Assembly: GCA_038064195.1 (NCBI GenBank)
Contig: JBBTTO010000003.1
Span: 244,428 to 292,591, forward strand
Length of the DNA stretch: 48,164 nucleotides
Origin: Patescibacteria group bacterium
Lineage (GTDB): Bacteria; Patescibacteriota; Microgenomatia; Levybacterales; UBA12049
Direction: 5' to 3'
Shown: positions 2,363 through 48,164 of the stretch, one piece after another
Numbering within the stretch: position 1 is the stretch's first letter
Layout of the letters: the number at the start of each line of letters is the position of its first letter
Made by a program: the position numbers and the translations under genes
The notes under the pieces: model-generated
Seen by the model: the letters and a program-made list of their open reading frames with translations, nothing else
Told to the model about the DNA's origin: nothing
The model's database searches: none

Positions 2363-3124
2363 ATGGCAACAAGAAAAACCACTACAAGAACTGTTAAAAA
2401 ATCCTCTAAAGCTCCGGTAAAAGCAGCTGCTTTAAAAACTACTAAGACCAAAAAACCCGAATCTCAGATGACATCTACCCGTCCGACAGTTAGTACTCCG
2501 GGTATTCTTCGTTCACGAATTAAGGTTAAGCGTCGAACAGCTATTATCGCGCTTGTTATTATCGCCCTCGTCGGGCTTGTTGTGTATTATCGAAGTCTCT
2601 TTGTCGTTGCTACGGTTAACGGTCAACCGATTTCACGGCTTTCATATATTCAGGAAACTGAGGCAGTCTATGTACCGGATGCTCGAGTTACCGCGGGTAA
2701 GCAAGCGATGAATCAAATCATTACTAAGACCCTGCTATCTCAGGAAGCAAATCGCCGTCATATTACCGTCAGCGATAAAGAAATCAATGATTCAGTTAAT
2801 AAGACTCGAGAAAGTCTGAAGAAATCAGGACAGACGCTGGAATCGGCCTTAGCTCTTCAGGGGGATAGCTTGCCTGCGTATAAAGCCCGCATCAGGATTC
2901 AGATGATTCTTGATAAATTGGTCGGAACTATCACTGTCAGTGACAAAGAAATCGCCGGTTATATCGAGAAGAACAAAGCTTCACTCCCTGCTGATGCCAG
3001 TGAAGCAGATCTCAAGACACAAGCGAAAGAGTCTCTCCGCCAGCAAAAATACAGTGAAAAAGTCCAGGCACTTATCTCAGGGTTACAGCAAAAAGCAAAG
3101 ATCACCTACCTCATTCCTCAGTAA
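2363..3124 (+). CDS. Membrane-anchored SurA-N/PrsA-like foldase with basic N-terminal tail
   Basis: TM helix followed by VVATVNGQPIS and ITVSDKEI repeats typical of SurA_N; no parvulin domain seen. Confidence 0.75.
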   Translation: MATRKTTTRTVKKSSKAPVKAAALKTTKTKKPESQMTSTRPTVSTPGILRSRIKVKRRTAIIALVIIALVGLVVYYRSLFVVATVNGQPISRLSYIQETEAVYVPDARVTAGKQAMNQIITKTLLSQEANRRHITVSDKEINDSVNKTRESLKKSGQTLESALALQGDSLPAYKARIRIQMILDKLVGTITVSDKEIAGYIEKNKASLPADASEADLKTQAKESLRQQKYSEKVQALISGLQQKAKITYLIPQ

Positions 3125-3149
3125 CTCCGTCCTCATAACAATCTCCGAT

Positions 3150-3175
3150 CCCGACTTCGCCTAGGCTTCGTCGGG
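3150..3175. repeat. 26-bp palindromic element (family C)
   Basis: CCCGACTTCGCCTAGGCTTCGTCGGG, 20/26 identical to 3292-3317. Confidence 0.7.
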
Positions 3176-3291
3176 CGAAGTAAATCGGGGTTGACAACTC
3201 ATCTCTCAGGTACTGTATTATAAGTAAGAGGGCTTGCCCCTCCGGAGCCCGAGGACTAAGCTTGGGATTAAAGTAAACCTTAGGAGCGAGA

Positions 3292-3317
3292 CCCCACTTC
3301 GCTAAAGCTACGTTGGG
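3292..3317. repeat. 26-bp palindromic element (family C)
   Basis: CCCCACTTCGCTAAAGCTACGTTGGG, similar to 3150-3175. Confidence 0.65.
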
Positions 3318-3322
3318 GGCGA

Positions 3323-3364
3323 CCCGCCTGCAAGCGCCTAGAGCGCTAGCGATTGGCGGGCAGG
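3323..3364. repeat. 42-bp palindromic element (family B)
   Basis: Shares CCCGCCTGCAA...GCGCTAGC...ATTG...GGGCAGG with 7813-7848 inside prfA. Confidence 0.8.
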
Positions 3365-3378
3365 AGGGGGGTGAGTGT

Positions 3379-3819
3379 ATGCCTAAAAAGAAAAAAACAA
3401 CAACACATCGTGCTCGAAGTACGAGATCTTCCTACAATGGCGGTATTGACGATCATTCTTTTTTAATTATTGCCGGAGGTGGACTGGTAGTTCTTCTTAT
3501 TGTCGGGTTCATGATCTTTAATGGAAAGACTCAGACTGCAACAGTTCCTACCCAGACGACTGCCAACCAAACGCAGAACACGGTGGTTATCAAGGATTTC
3601 GCTTTTGCACCAGTTAGTACGACAGTGAAAGTAGGTACGACAGTTATCTGGGAAAATAGTGACAGTGTCGAACACTCAGCAGTTGCTGATGACGGGACAT
3701 TTGAGACCAACGTATTGGCACCGGGTGCCAAAGGGAGTTTCACATTCACTAAGGCTGGCAGTTATACGTATCATTGCGGAGTTCATCCGAGTATGACCGG
3801 GACGATAGTTGTGGAGTAG
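3379..3819 (+). CDS. Membrane-anchored cupredoxin (plastocyanin/amicyanin-like)
   Basis: Type-1 Cu ligands in N-x4-H and YHCGVHPSM; TM helix. Start moved to ATG 3379, which follows a strong SD (GGAGGGGGGTGA). Confidence 0.85.
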   Translation: MPKKKKTTTHRARSTRSSYNGGIDDHSFLIIAGGGLVVLLIVGFMIFNGKTQTATVPTQTTANQTQNTVVIKDFAFAPVSTTVKVGTTVIWENSDSVEHSAVADDGTFETNVLAPGAKGSFTFTKAGSYTYHCGVHPSMTGTIVVE

Positions 3820-3824
3820 TAGCA

Positions 3825-5357
3825 CTACACTGACTGATAGGTTACACCCAAGTCTTTGCTATTTGATAATGTTCTAATACGAGCTTGACTCTTATTGGAG
3901 AAGAGGTAGCGGATAAGTATTTTGTACGTATCGAGATCAAAGTCATAGCTCATCTCGTTCTCATTAAGACTGCCAAGCATATCAGTTTTTATATTGCCCA
4001 GATAGCACCATTTGTCCACCAGAAAATATTCATTTTTGCCGGTCAATTCGTTTTTCTCCTCAATCAGTATCGGGCCTTTGTAGGGCCAGGGTTTGATTCG
4101 GCTTTTACTGAATGCGCCGATAAAACGCATGTTGTAGGCAAGCGGTAGCTCCTTTTTAACACAGGCTCCTTTGCAGCGTTCAAGTCTGTAGCCAAAGCAG
4201 CTGGTCGTTGTCTTTTCAAGTTCAAGTAATTTCTCACAGAGTGAGTTCTCCTTGGCCAGATTTGCCAAATAGTCTCTGGCCTGGCGACGCGAGCGAAAAA
4301 ACCCGATGTAGGAGTCGAGTTCGTCAGGCTTAACTTGCGTGACAGGATTGAGGCTGACGCATAAATACCCGTCACTGTCTGTATATGACCTGAGAGCTAT
4401 CAGTTCCTGTTTGGTTCTAAGCATTTTATTGTAAATCGGAAGTTTGGTCTTGATCAGATGTGATTCCAAAAGCAACGCCCCCAATTCACCGGCTGTCTCG
4501 ATTGCCTCAAGACTTTCCACCTGCTGGGCTATTTTCATCTCTAAAGGGGAGTGGATGTCTCCCGCAAAGTGGGAGAGCACGCGGTCACGGATATTGACAC
4601 TTTTTCCGATGTAGAGGGGGATAGATTCATTTAAATTCGAAGCACGAATATCGAAGTTCGAAACAATTTTTGTTTTGGATTTTTGATCATTTGAGTTTGT
4701 CTCGGATTTCGAGTTTTGGTATTCGGATTTTCCATAAAATATGTACACACCTGGTGTCTCAGGAAGCTTATCGAGGATATTGTGGTTGAGTTTTACTGGC
4801 AAATATGGTTTCTTGAGGACGAGTCCGAGTGCCGCTTCAAATATTTCGGGGCTGACTTGTTTTTTTGCCAGATCATAAAATGTCTGGATTGCTAAAGCAT
4901 CTCCTAAGGCGCGATGTCTGTTCTCACACTTGATCTCAAAACGTTCGATGATGCTGTCTAAATTATGTCTTTTGTGTCTGGGGAAGAGTGTACGTGAGAG
5001 TCTGACGGTACAGAAATGTCGGGGTGAAAAAGAAGCACCCAAGCGTGCAAACTCTGCTTTGAGGAAGCCATAGTCAAATCTGACGTTATGTGCGACGAAA
5101 GTATAGTCGCGAAGATGCATGAGGATATCACCGGCAACCTCCCGAAAGGTGGGAGCGCTCTCTAAGTCCTGGGACCTAATGCCGGTCATTTGCTCGATTT
5201 CAGGCGGGATGCTTGCCTGGGGGTTGATGAGAGTTGAATAGGTATCGATCAGTTCACCATTATCTGTTTTGACAATGCCAATCTCAATAACGCGGTCCCA
5301 TGTAGAGCGGGTACCGGTGGTTTCGATGTCAACGAAGGCTAATTTACTCGGCAGCAT
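3825..5357 (-). CDS. DnaQ (DEDDh) exonuclease fused to a UvrC/Cho-like GIY-YIG endonuclease
   Basis: FVDIETTG, AHNVRFD and HRALGDA; PGVYIF...LYIGKSVNIR; Cys cluster C-x9-C-x6-C-x3-C. Confidence 0.88.
   Translation of the reverse strand: MLPSKLAFVDIETTGTRSTWDRVIEIGIVKTDNGELIDTYSTLINPQASIPPEIEQMTGIRSQDLESAPTFREVAGDILMHLRDYTFVAHNVRFDYGFLKAEFARLGASFSPRHFCTVRLSRTLFPRHKRHNLDSIIERFEIKCENRHRALGDALAIQTFYDLAKKQVSPEIFEAALGLVLKKPYLPVKLNHNILDKLPETPGVYIFYGKSEYQNSKSETNSNDQKSKTKIVSNFDIRASNLNESIPLYIGKSVNIRDRVLSHFAGDIHSPLEMKIAQQVESLEAIETAGELGALLLESHLIKTKLPIYNKMLRTKQELIALRSYTDSDGYLCVSLNPVTQVKPDELDSYIGFFRSRRQARDYLANLAKENSLCEKLLELEKTTTSCFGYRLERCKGACVKKELPLAYNMRFIGAFSKSRIKPWPYKGPILIEEKNELTGKNEYFLVDKWCYLGNIKTDMLGSLNENEMSYDFDLDTYKILIRYLFSNKSQARIRTLSNSKDLGVTYQSV
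4632..4730 (-). repeat. 99-bp heptamer-based palindromic element (family A) inserted in frame
   Basis: First 16 nt and last 21 nt (reverse complement) are identical to the ends of 7132-7260; encodes 33 aa. Confidence 0.88.
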
Positions 5358-5364
5358 GGGGAGT

Positions 5365-5432
5365 TAGTATACAGAATTTAGTATAAAGTATAAAGAACTA
5401 GCTTAATACTATCTACTGTATACTGTATACTG
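5365..5432. repeat. Inverted heptamer array (NNAGTAT / ATACTNN) in a divergent promoter region
   Basis: ttagtat-acagaat-ttagtat-aaagtat ... aatact-atctact-gtatact-gtatact. Confidence 0.6.
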
Positions 5433-5437
5433 AGTAT

Positions 5438-7129
5438 ATGGAGAGTATTTTTTTCGAGATTGCCCTGGTCATTATCGTTGCGGCTGTCCTTTCAATCGTA
5501 TTCCGTTACCTCAGGCAGCCCTCAATTCTTGCCTATATTCTTACCGGTATTATTCTTGGTCCACTTGGCCTGTTTCACTTGAGTAATTCAGCATCTCTCC
5601 AGACATTGGGGCAGCTCGGCATCACGTTGCTTCTCTTTATGTTAGGCCTTGAGCTGAAATTGCATGAGCTTAAGTCGATAGGGAAGACAGCAGCGATTAT
5701 AGGCACGTTGCAGATGGCTTTGACAGCTGTCTTAGGATATGGCCTCTGTATTGCTTTAGGCTTCTCAAACACTGTTGCCATCTATGGTGCGATAGCTCTT
5801 TCTTTTTCGAGTACGATCGTTATTGTTAAATTACTTTCAGACAAAAAAGATCTCAACAGTCTGCACGGCAAATTAGCTATCGGTATTCTTTTGATGCAGG
5901 ATTTCTTCGCTATTTTGACCATCATTTTCCTGAATGGTTTTCATCTCGGTTCACCCGCCGAGGTACTGCAACAGATTCTCTTAGTTGCTCTGAAATTAAG
6001 TGTGCTTGTCGGCTGGATTTTACTTTTCAGCCGTTATGTTTTCCCGAAAGTCCTGCACAAATTATCTAGTTCTGATGAATTACTTTTTCTCTTCAGCCTG
6101 GCGTGGGTCTTTGCCGTGACAGCCCTTGTCACCTGGCAGCCGATTGGTTTTTCAATTGAGATCGGAGGCTTTTTGGCGGGACTTGCCTTGGCGAATACGC
6201 ATGAGAATTACCAGATTATCGCGCGTATGAAAGCACTCCGGGATTTTTTCATGACGATATTTTTTGTGATGCTCGGGATTAATATGACCTTTGCCAATGT
6301 CGCCTCAAGTATCGTCCCGGCAATCCTCCTGTCTCTTTTTGTCATTATCTTCAAGCCATTCCTGGTCATGCTTATTACCGGCATTTTGGGGTTTCGTAAA
6401 AGAACATCATTTTTTGTCGGGATCACTATGGCTCAGATTTCTGAGTTCAGTCTGATTATTTTATTCCTGGGCCAAAGTAAGGGAATTATTCCGCAAAACG
6501 TCGTAACGACTATGATTATTGTCAGTATGATTACCTTTACTGCCTCAACATACCTCATCCAAAATACCAATAAGTTGTATAAAATATTCGGTAAGTGGCT
6601 TTCACTCATTGAACTGCGTAAAACTCCTAACGATCATGATTTGACGAGTGGTGAAGAGTTCGTTGATTTTGACAAGCATGTTATTCTCATTGGGGGACAC
6701 CAGATGGGTAAGAGTATCATGCATGCGCTAAAACAAAGTAAAGAGCAAGTGCTGGTCGTCGATTTTGACCCGGATGTCATCGAAAGACTGAAAAAAGAGA
6801 AAACACCTGCCATGTTTGGCGATATTGCCGATCCTGATATCCAGGAACGGGTCGGTTTTGAACGCGCCAAAATGGTCATCTCGACAGTGCCTGATCTTGA
6901 AGACAATCTATTACTGATTGAGGGTCTCACTCATTTGAACAGAAGGGCTAAAATTGTAGTAATGGCTTTTGAGGCCAACGACGCCAAGCAGTTATACAAA
7001 GCCGGAGCCGATTATGTCGTCCTGCCACATTTAGCAGGTGGGCATCATCTGGCTAAAATTTTACTCAACGATGATGATCTGGAGATGATAGAGAAATATA
7101 AAAAAAAGGATCTTGAATACCTCAAGTAA
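5438..7129 (+). CDS. CPA2/Kef-type cation:H+ antiporter with C-terminal TrkA-N (RCK) domain
   Basis: LFMLGLE, SFSSTIVI, ILLMQD and QISEFS motifs; C-terminal Rossmann-like domain (ILIGGHQMG, FGD). Confidence 0.9.
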   Translation: MESIFFEIALVIIVAAVLSIVFRYLRQPSILAYILTGIILGPLGLFHLSNSASLQTLGQLGITLLLFMLGLELKLHELKSIGKTAAIIGTLQMALTAVLGYGLCIALGFSNTVAIYGAIALSFSSTIVIVKLLSDKKDLNSLHGKLAIGILLMQDFFAILTIIFLNGFHLGSPAEVLQQILLVALKLSVLVGWILLFSRYVFPKVLHKLSSSDELLFLFSLAWVFAVTALVTWQPIGFSIEIGGFLAGLALANTHENYQIIARMKALRDFFMTIFFVMLGINMTFANVASSIVPAILLSLFVIIFKPFLVMLITGILGFRKRTSFFVGITMAQISEFSLIILFLGQSKGIIPQNVVTTMIIVSMITFTASTYLIQNTNKLYKIFGKWLSLIELRKTPNDHDLTSGEEFVDFDKHVILIGGHQMGKSIMHALKQSKEQVLVVDFDPDVIERLKKEKTPAMFGDIADPDIQERVGFERAKMVISTVPDLEDNLLLIEGLTHLNRRAKIVVMAFEANDAKQLYKAGADYVVLPHLAGGHHLAKILLNDDDLEMIEKYKKKDLEYLK

Positions 7130-7131
7130 AT

Positions 7132-7260
7132 AAATCCGAATACCAAAGCACGAAATTCGAAGTAATATCCAAAAAATAAATCTTTAAATCAAAAATATAG
7201 GTCATTTTAATTTTGAGATTAGGATTTGTTTCGGATTTTGATATTCGTGCTTCGAATTTA
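7132..7260. repeat. Intergenic family A palindromic element between convergent genes
   Basis: AAATCCGAATACCAAA...GATATTCGTGCTTCGAATTTA; inverted heptamer units. Confidence 0.85.
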
Positions 7261-8193
7261 GGATTCGTTATCATCCAATGTAGGTGAATCTTCTGTGGGG
7301 TGTTCCTCAGGTATCGCTCCGTCCATAATAACCGGCAAATTACCCCATGATTTACCCAGTCGATGATCTGTCAGACGATCTTGCGGGAAATTGTAGGTTT
7401 TGATTTTCTCATTTCGCATACCACGTCCGACCTGTGTTGCTTTGAGGGAGGCGTATTCTTTTTGCTGTTTTTCAACTTCCATTTCCCAGAGGCGGGCGCG
7501 AAGCAAGGTCATGGCTATCTCCCGATTTTGGATCTGAGAACGTTCGGCTGAGGAGACAACCGTCAAGCCTGTTGGCTTATGGATGAGACGGACGGCGGTT
7601 GAGACTTTGTTGACGTTTTGACCGCCATGACCGCCACTCCGGAAGGCCTCAAAGGATATTTCATCAGGGCTGATATGTAAATCAATATCCTGTAGCTCAG
7701 GGAGGACAGAGACTGTTACTGTTGAGGTATGGATGCGACCTTTTTTCTCAGTCTTGGGAACCCTCTGGACACGATGGACGCCTGATTCATATTTAAGAAT
7801 GTTAAAGACCCCCCCGCCTGCAACGCTTGCGCTAGCATTGTGGGCAGGCTTACCTGATATCTCAAGGACTTTGTCTTCCAAAAATTCGGCTTTGTAGCCT
7901 TTTCGCTCGGCAAAACGCATATACATTCGCAGCAATTCTTCAGCAAAAATACTCGCCTCGTCTCCTCCTGCGGCACCTTTGATCTCAAGGAGCACATTAC
8001 GTGTGTCAAGATCATCGCTTTTTGCGTTTTCCTGACTTTGCTTAAGACTGTCCTCAAGTGCTTGCTTTTGGAGATTGAGTGAAGACAGTTCCTCCTGCGC
8101 TAACTCCTGCAAAGCAGGATCAGTCATCAGAGACTCAGTCTCCGCAATTTTTTTGGCAAGTTCTTCTAATTGGACGTAGCGGTAGTCGTTCAT
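7258..8193 (-). CDS. prfA: Peptide chain release factor 1
   Basis: [11 protein letters not shown] (PxT, RF1-specific), GGQ and [13 protein letters not shown]; adjacent to rpmE. Confidence 0.95.
7813..7848 (-). repeat. 36-bp family B element inserted in frame in prfA
   Basis: Encodes [12 protein letters not shown]; homologous to 3323-3364. Confidence 0.85.
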
Positions 8194-8198
8194 AGGAA

Positions 8199-8268
8199 TG
8201 ATTGACGCGGATTTAATAACTGATTTTCACAGATCTGTGTCTATCTGTTTCCAATCTGTGGTTATCAT
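8199..8268. repeat. Imperfect inverted repeat (family D, ~10-bp CGGATTT/AATCTGTG units)
   Basis: Similar organisation to 38360-38441. Confidence 0.55.
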
Positions 8269-8275
8269 ACAAAAG

Positions 8276-8575
8276 TTATTTGAGGGCCATGAGCATCTCG
8301 CGGAGAGACTTTGGTGCTTCACTTGCTTTTTTCTTTTCTTCCTGTTTTTTGATATGAGTTGCTTTATATTCGGTTGCGGTTTTGATCTTTGTTTCAAATT
8401 TTTGGATACGGGAAGCCGTATCGACGAATTTTTGTTCGCCTGTATAGAAAGGATGGCATTTATTACACAACTCAACGTGGATTGTCTCTTTGGTTGAACC
8501 GATAGTGAAGCGGTTACCACAGACACAAACGACATTAGTTGCGTCAAAATATTGGGGATGGATTGCAGTCTGCAT
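8276..8575 (-). CDS. rpmE: 50S ribosomal protein L31, Zn-binding type, with C-terminal extension
   Basis: IHPQY, CVCGN and CNKCHPFYTG motifs. Confidence 0.95.
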   Translation of the reverse strand: MQTAIHPQYFDATNVVCVCGNRFTIGSTKETIHVELCNKCHPFYTGEQKFVDTASRIQKFETKIKTATEYKATHIKKQEEKKKASEAPKSLREMLMALK

Positions 8576-48109: not shown

Positions 48110-48164
48110 CCTGCTACCTGCTACCTGCTACCTGCTACCTGCTACCTGCTACCTGCTACCTGCT
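48110..48164. repeat. Perfect heptamer tandem repeat (CCTGCTA)n, at least 7.9 copies, running off the window end
   Basis: Read directly from the sequence. Confidence 0.95.

Follow-up and report, generated by a model that had tools for sequence, protein, structure and literature searches.

The 36 nucleotides at positions 7813-7848 of the window (the whole stretch of 48,164 nucleotides that was analysed, from a Patescibacteria group bacterium) can with good confidence be read as a non-autonomous solo copy of a tiny mobile DNA element that folds into a hairpin; the copy would be translated as a surface loop of peptide chain release factor 1 (RF1). An in-frame insertion of a palindromic repeat in the RF1 gene had been proposed by a first-pass annotation, and the proposal was borne out: the segment measures 36 nt, or 12 codons, and the corresponding sites of the congeners are empty. 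The genome is that of an ultra-small groundwater bacterium and comprises 1.08 Mb in 5 contigs. The features of the window considered here are the following.

7258..8193, minus strand: prfA, the gene of peptide chain release factor 1; the product counts 311 aa with the insert and has the domains PCRF and RF-1, the GGQ motif and the tripeptide PKT
7813..7848, minus strand: hairpin element copy in prfA, 36 nt, in frame, RF1 codons 116-127
3323..3364, plus strand: hairpin element, 42-nt non-coding copy, with its 3' end 14 nt upstream of the start codon (ATG, 3379) of a cupredoxin-like gene

Insertion of the hairpin element into prfA

The open reading frame at 7258-8193 on the minus strand matched the Pfam families PCRF (2.3e-46) and RF-1 (1.2e-35), its best PDB sequence match was the RF1 of T. 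thermophilus (2.2e-72), and its model matched ribosome-bound RF1 in Foldseek with a TM of up to 0.79. The encoded protein is an RF1 by its domains, its GGQ motif, its tripeptide of the P-x-T type and its fold, P-x-T and GGQ being what we take to be the defining features of the RF1 family. On the plus strand the insert reads CCCGCCTGCAACGCTTGCGCTAGCATTGTGGGCAGG, an imperfect palindrome of 36 nt. Its right arm, GTGGGCAGG, differs from the family consensus GCGGGCAGG by one mismatch, which gives a His where the other copies have an Arg.

For comparison, RF1 genes were drawn from 30 related genomes and aligned. The site was empty in 8/8 congeners, which read ISGK|G[AV]FN with nothing between and whose proteins are 79-89% identical, and 23 of the 29 other RF1s aligned had no extra residue at the insertion turn. 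Deleting the 36 nt gives the spacing of these 8 same-genus and 23/29 other aligned RF1s, as had been anticipated, and the 12-aa segment was not conserved in the other RF1s. At the DNA level the congeners have GGT AAA GGG GTC and this genome has GGT AAG, the 36 nt and then GGG GTC; the insertion point lies between the codon of Lys115 and a Gly codon, and no target-site duplication was found at this junction in the comparison with the congeners. Short GC-rich element-like remnants stand at the same turn in two distant RF1s (L031 and L021). These alignments demonstrate that the prfA copy was inserted precisely, without target-site duplication, after the split from the 8 sampled congeners.

The filled RF1 allele was present with 0 differences in contigs of the sequencing runs X1, X10 and X12, which belong to three studies (X1 is possibly the source), and unrelated metagenome contigs matched positions 7812-7848 only, so that the borders of the element were marked independently. 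The contigs of 4 runs showed no empty RF1 allele, neither as a joint nor as an indel, contigs being known to drop rare variants. The site was thus found only filled in these contigs, with no empty/filled polymorphism, and any current mobility of the element is putative.

An AlphaFold model of RF1, computed from a 29-sequence alignment, had a mean pLDDT of 79.6. In this model the insert residues 118-125 have a pLDDT below 50 and are located between the strand 109-113 and the helix 129-136, in keeping with the surface loop that had been expected on the RF1 structure. The same turn has 1-8 extra residues in 6 of the 29 other RF1s aligned. Given the low pLDDT of the insert and this natural length variation, the model supports the reading of the insert as a tolerated flexible loop. 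Going by the reading frames, the insert would be translated as a flexible loop of 12 residues, and its survival may be ascribed to a length that is a multiple of three, to the lack of stops and to a length-tolerant turn. The RF1 insert itself gave no hint of a function, and it is most likely a tolerated passenger.

Compared with the RF1s of T. thermophilus and E. coli, the RF1 of this lineage is short and lacks about 40-55 N-terminal residues, and also about 10 residues before the ISGK strand. HMMER placed the insert on 'S-KVVFEVRGP' of T. thermophilus RF1; this placement was rejected as spurious, because the lineage lacks those approximately 10 residues there and the alignment of the relatives puts the insert after 'ISGK'.

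A family of hairpins in the genome

The two copies of the window have the exact 11-mer CCCGCCTGCAA in common, together with GCGCTAGC, ATTG and GGGCAGG, and the shared blocks reported at first reading are thus real. When up to 1 mismatch was allowed, CCCGCCTGCAA had 3 matches in the window against 0.61 expected, a number reached in 0 of 100 shuffles. The copy at 3323-3364 had been described as non-coding; this is correct, but the copy stands in a 5' leader (14 nt upstream of the ATG at 3379) and not in anonymous spacer, and its 3' end falls within an AGGAGG at 3362-3367. An Rfam scan of positions 3100-8300 of the window at E<=1 matched no family.

The element is an imperfect palindrome, CCCGCCTGC...GCGGGCAGG, of 32-45 nt, with conserved arms of 9 nt and a variable, self-pairing core. 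The two-arm pattern with at most 1 mismatch per arm had 26 matches in the genome against 0-2 in five shuffles; 22 of the 26 were kept, and C2:30707, C2:189407, C3:48883 and C3:88608 were set aside as lacking the core hairpin or the arm pattern. With exact arms there were 15 matches, against 0 in five shuffles, while a looser pattern with two mismatches per arm was discarded as noisy (119 matches vs 47-48 in shuffles). A genome-wide count, proposed beforehand as a check, therefore comes to about 22 copies, of which 9 lie inside coding sequence and 13 outside. Between the arms, pairing is interrupted by one conserved C·A mismatch and includes one T·G wobble; the cores vary from copy to copy yet pair, all 22 folding better than their core-shuffled counterparts (hand-computed mean z -1.5), and the stability of the hairpins is -17 to -19 kcal/mol.

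Each of the 9 internal coding copies has a length of 36, 39 or 42 nt, divisible by three, and contains no stop; among the 13 non-coding copies, 7 have a length divisible by three. At least 4 of the six frames are used in the reading of the copies, with peptides starting PAR.., PAS.., TRLQ.. and NPPA... No target-site motif was found in the flanks of the copies, and no orientation bias among the coding copies (6 antisense and 4 sense, the UvrD leader copy included). Two positions are favoured by the non-coding copies, one 11-15 nt before start codons (of the cupredoxin-like gene, a UvrD-like gene and two GIY-YIG genes), and the other in or beside tRNA genes and tRNA fragments.

At G000:C2:609850-610110 (L250), directly after tRNA-Thr(CGT), there is a tRNA-like remnant that was not called by ARAGORN. 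It has a D-arm-like stem, a good T-arm and acceptor 3' strand and no anticodon arm, and an element copy stands at the place of the D-loop.

Copies inside other coding genes

The host ORFs of the copies were identified with Pfam. The nine coding copies reside in a thioredoxin-reductase-like protein (TrxR), an acylphosphatase, the C-terminal tail of a 5'-3' exonuclease, alanyl-tRNA synthetase (AlaRS), an AMP-binding enzyme, topoisomerase I (TopA), an alpha/beta hydrolase, a DUF1573 protein and RF1. The same-genus orthologues found were empty for TrxR (7/7), AlaRS (8/8) and TopA (7/7), so that the empty-site alleles sought in relatives were obtained for these three hosts besides RF1 (8/8). The junctions in AlaRS and TrxR, the ones examined besides RF1, were exact and without target duplication. 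Comparison with the congeners demonstrates a recent entry of the same hairpin family into at least three further core genes here. The earlier suggestion that the repeat family is adding peptide loops to core proteins holds in terms of reading frames; what it says of the proteins themselves goes further than these.

The AlaRS copy splits GNWSLGD|YFK. In an alignment to the E. coli AlaRS (3HXU), a 12-residue gap falls between D100 and Y101, which means that a motif conserved across phyla is interrupted. GD|YFK is a surprising site for a tolerated loop and counts against the reading preferred here. The AlaRS model, for which 9 sequences were aligned, was of too low a quality to be informative (mean pLDDT 58.1; pLDDT below 50 for residues 18-108).

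The TrxR of G021 has an independent insertion 5 residues from the site that is filled in this genome. Sites are thus repeatedly hit or repeatedly tolerated, and the insertions are not inherited. In the thioredoxin reductase of G019 (L086), four tandem GSTGSPQG repeats occupy the surface loop that holds the hairpin here; they are a different kind of in-frame repeat insertion.

Distribution across genomes

Of 31 relatives, 13 have copies with exact arms; in an even sample of 401 genomes from the phylum, 46 have them (41/320 genera), and the reversed control pattern gave 0 in each of the 401 genomes. Copy number varies widely among genomes, this genome having the most (15) and the next one 12, both with exact arms. 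Identical 36-mers are present in different families, and the copy nearest to the RF1 insert (35/36 identical) is found not in this genome but in G023, which belongs to another family and has this copy in frame as well. These counts demonstrate a patchy distribution of the hairpin family in the phylum.

A scan of all species genomes returned at least 126 loci; many of its high-GC matches look like chance, of which about 330 are expected by our estimate. Among the matches listed, canonical-looking copies occur under the deposited labels Saccharibacteria, Parcubacteria and Daviesbacteria, and the deposited labels also include Verrucomicrobia, Kiritimatiellia, Desulfobacteraceae and Gammaproteobacteria. 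Among these same listed matches, L154, L157, L160, L173, L175, L189 and L194 bear the labels Pseudomonadales, Gammaproteobacteria, Kiritimatiellia and Verrucomicrobia, and one copy under these labels is identical to the AlaRS copy of this genome. The copies under these four labels could be either a real spread across phyla or mis-binned CPR contigs.

Association with miniature GIY-YIG genes and tRNA genes

This genome contains 5 small GIY-YIG genes, encoding proteins of 78-79 aa with the Pfam GIY-YIG domain only, and in 2 of the 5 the element stands 11-12 nt before the ATG. At both of these genes a duplicated tRNA 5' fragment (Arg-TCT and Gln-TTG) is split by the element, with the intact tRNA 3' of the gene. 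The NCBIfam search with the small GIY-YIG proteins gave a weak, sub-threshold match to a group I intron endonuclease model (20.8 bits).

By tblastn, 34 homologous GIY-YIG genes were identified in 30 loci, 11 of them at >=56% identity and 23 more distant. The element lies within 60 nt in 8 of the 11 closest homologues and a two-mismatch variant of it in a ninth; the 2 others have no element at all. Five of the 8 have the element upstream; in the other three it lies just downstream, in direct contact with a tRNA-Lys or tRNA-Lys-like sequence at its 5' end. Of the distant homologues 1 in 23 is near an element, a copy common to it and its neighbour.

The element abuts the 5' end of a tRNA-Lys gene at L255 (G025) and L257 (G011), and that of an uncalled tRNA-Lys-like sequence at L261 (G015). 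At these three loci the acceptor stem seems to begin with the terminal G residues of the element, and the tRNA gene would therefore stay intact. Upstream of the GIY-YIG gene at L258 (G010:C18), the element is nested in the loop of another copy of the family, which hints at folded or single-stranded DNA as the preferred target.

We tentatively propose that the home of the element is a miniature cassette at tRNA genes, composed of the hairpin and the gene of the 78-aa single-domain GIY-YIG nuclease, in this genome at G000:C2:689317-689550. The nuclease would recognise the folded, single-stranded hairpin, as Ssn does its NTS/SRM repeats, and would spread solo hairpins in trans. With slightly less confidence, the pair of hairpin and 78-aa GIY-YIG protein might rank among the smallest mobile units, an Ssn-like cassette that homes to tRNA 5' parts across CPR and perhaps PVC bacteria, its detached hairpins being pasted genome-wide into single-stranded DNA, with no duplication of the target and with a steady gain of loops of 12-15 residues.

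Comparison with known repeat systems

According to PMC10969869, Rickettsia palindromic elements (RPEs) are about 150 bp long and form ten families with a conserved encoded peptide; a large share of them lie in frame inside unrelated housekeeping genes, where the added peptide appears compatible with function. The present element likewise is a palindromic repeat found in frame in unrelated functional genes, with 9 coding copies and 4 hosts whose orthologues are empty. Unlike the RPEs, it comprises 32-45 nt with 9-nt arms and a variable core, is read in several frames into several peptides, and occurs in a different phylum; the length of about 100-150 bp and the family-specific peptide described for RPEs were not found in it. 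The likeness would thus be one of behaviour only, and the analogy with RPEs drawn in the first-pass annotation stands for behaviour and fails for size (32-45 nt vs about 150 bp).

REPs are described by Di Nocera et al. (2013, PMC3733652) as GC-rich stem-loops of 20-40 bp in many copies, some of them inside replication and repair genes, and for the CGTC REPs no transposase of their own is known. The element resembles REPs as a multi-copy GC-rich stem-loop that is in part intragenic and, as for the CGTC REPs, has no dedicated transposase known. It differs from the REPs of that source in having about 22 copies rather than hundreds, with about 40% of its copies intragenic. The 25-nt flanks of the 22 copies hold no conserved GTAG or CGTC end tag on either side, and within the family GTAG occurs only inside the core of one subfamily. 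The element therefore has the stem-loop of a REP but not its tag. MITEs, with terminal inverted repeats and a target-site duplication at a length of 70-300 bp, do not fit either: no duplication is present at RF1, AlaRS or TrxR, and the element is 32-45 nt long.

The Ssn proteins (CDD cd10448) are small and consist of a single GIY-YIG domain; as reported by Chenal et al. (2025, PMC11893778), they cleave single-stranded DNA next to hairpin repeats of their own that flank them. The same arrangement, a tiny GIY-YIG gene adjoined by a directional hairpin of 20-50 nt with solo copies scattered elsewhere, is seen here, and a small single-domain GIY-YIG gene adjoined by a hairpin repeat was found in 8/11 of the closest homologues plus one variant. 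In contrast to the repeats of that study, the element lies outside the SRM search sequence, and the cassette here is in or at tRNA genes. None of the 22 copies fits the degenerate SRM search sequence given there; this sequence had 8 matches genome-wide vs 2-5 in shuffles, and the 5 small GIY-YIG genes were free of it to a distance of 1 kb. Since 0/22 copies fit, the association is at most a new nuclease-hairpin pair and not a member of the SRM family. Ssn nucleases are known to cut DNA and not to insert it, which counts against the nuclease model as far as the pasting of the hairpin into a new site is concerned. A full-text literature search of partial coverage returned no description of the element in CPR bacteria.

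The small GIY-YIG genes of the present genomes may also be compared with a free-standing homing endonuclease gene. T4 SegB presumably offers a parallel as a small GIY-YIG gene in phage tRNA clusters, and to our knowledge it possesses a DNA-binding domain and has no associated dispersed hairpin, unlike the GIY-YIG protein that goes with the element. The likeness lies in a small GIY-YIG gene wedged between or into tRNA genes (cf. PMC13096335).

Alternative explanations

The genome encodes one Y1_Tnp ORF (PF01797, 47.4 bits, above the cut-off), and a classical REP/REPIN-type element mobilised by this RAYT-like Y1 (HUH) tyrosine transposase (G000:C2:7873-8517) has to be weighed against a GIY-YIG cassette. 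Single-strand HUH transposition of the IS200/IS605 type inserts DNA without target duplication, and the lack of a duplication at the element is consistent with it. The ORF also matches the NCBIfam model REP_Tyr_transpos, but at 56.5 bits against a cut-off of 80. Y1 homologues (E<=1e-10) were present in 32/45 element-bearing vs 96/355 element-free genomes of the 400-genome phylum sample (hand count), and in 10/12 element-bearing relatives vs 10/18 others among the 30; however, genomes that are related do not count as independent samples, the association vanishes within the same class (4/5 vs 13/19), and 13 element-bearing genomes, including G115 with its 12 copies, have no Y1 homologue. Whereas a REPtron is a RAYT flanked by its REPs, 0/12 Y1 loci have an element within +-1.5 kb, the Y1 gene has its own local GGGGTTSAACCCC palindromes, which are absent from the rest of the genome, and the missing end tag in the flanks of the 22 copies speaks against a REP as well. 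We consider mobilisation by the Y1 protein improbable.

The proteins would be unchanged if the hairpin were skipped by the ribosome, as are the byp elements of yeast mitochondria and the bypassed segment of T4 gene 60, or removed from the mRNA. The AlaRS copy, which splits a GD|YFK conserved from E. coli to this lineage, and the stable hairpin of -17 to -19 kcal/mol would suit such skipping. Byp-like elements, however, have matching take-off and landing codons and a length free of triplet constraint, whereas 9/9 internal coding copies here are multiples of three and stop-free, which a skipped segment does not need, and in RF1 the insert follows an AAG codon but itself ends in GGG, so that the two differ. 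With their lack of conservation the flanks offer no common splice helix for a removal from the mRNA, and the Rfam scan of window positions 3100-8300 likewise gave no family for either process. Skipping or removal is accordingly very unlikely. That the genome was assembled from a metagenome, and that the two window copies have only an 11-mer and short blocks in common, could suggest an artefact of assembly or binning, or a chance similarity of two GC-rich stretches. The probability of this is negligible: artefact and chance were rejected given the filled allele with 0 differences in contigs of three runs, the 22 copies against 0-2 expected and the reversed control at 0 in 401 genomes. A solo copy of a mobile hairpin, translated in RF1, remains the reading that we prefer.

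Just upstream of the Y1 transposase-like gene there are three GGGGTTSAACCCC palindromes (L001 2020-2110; G000:C2:8540-8660), and two similar palindromes precede its orthologue in G001.

Implications for CPR proteins and genomes

The colonisation of essential genes by in-frame palindromic repeats is not peculiar to Rickettsia; it has also taken place, recently and repeatedly, in ultra-small groundwater bacteria with genomes of about 1 Mb, in RF1, AlaRS and topoisomerase I. Inserts of 12-15 aa are therefore to be expected in the annotation and alignment of CPR proteins, where they flag loops that are tolerant of insertion. The tight pairing with one miniature GIY-YIG clade points to a candidate for a new sequence- and structure-specific single-strand nuclease. 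If the cassette reading is true, essential proteins would gain loops, even in the GD|YFK of AlaRS, and reduced genomes would undergo a steady innovation in protein length.

Other repeats in the window

The spacer after prfA (window 7125-7265) belongs to a separate family of AT-rich repeats about 130 nt long, for which the genome has at least 10 other matching places (68-77% identity). An inverted piece of this repeat, 35 nt long and 91% complementary, is located at 4632-4730 inside the DnaQ/GIY-YIG ORF 3825-5357. The end of the window (48110-48164) is a perfect tandem run of the 7-nt unit CCTGCTA.
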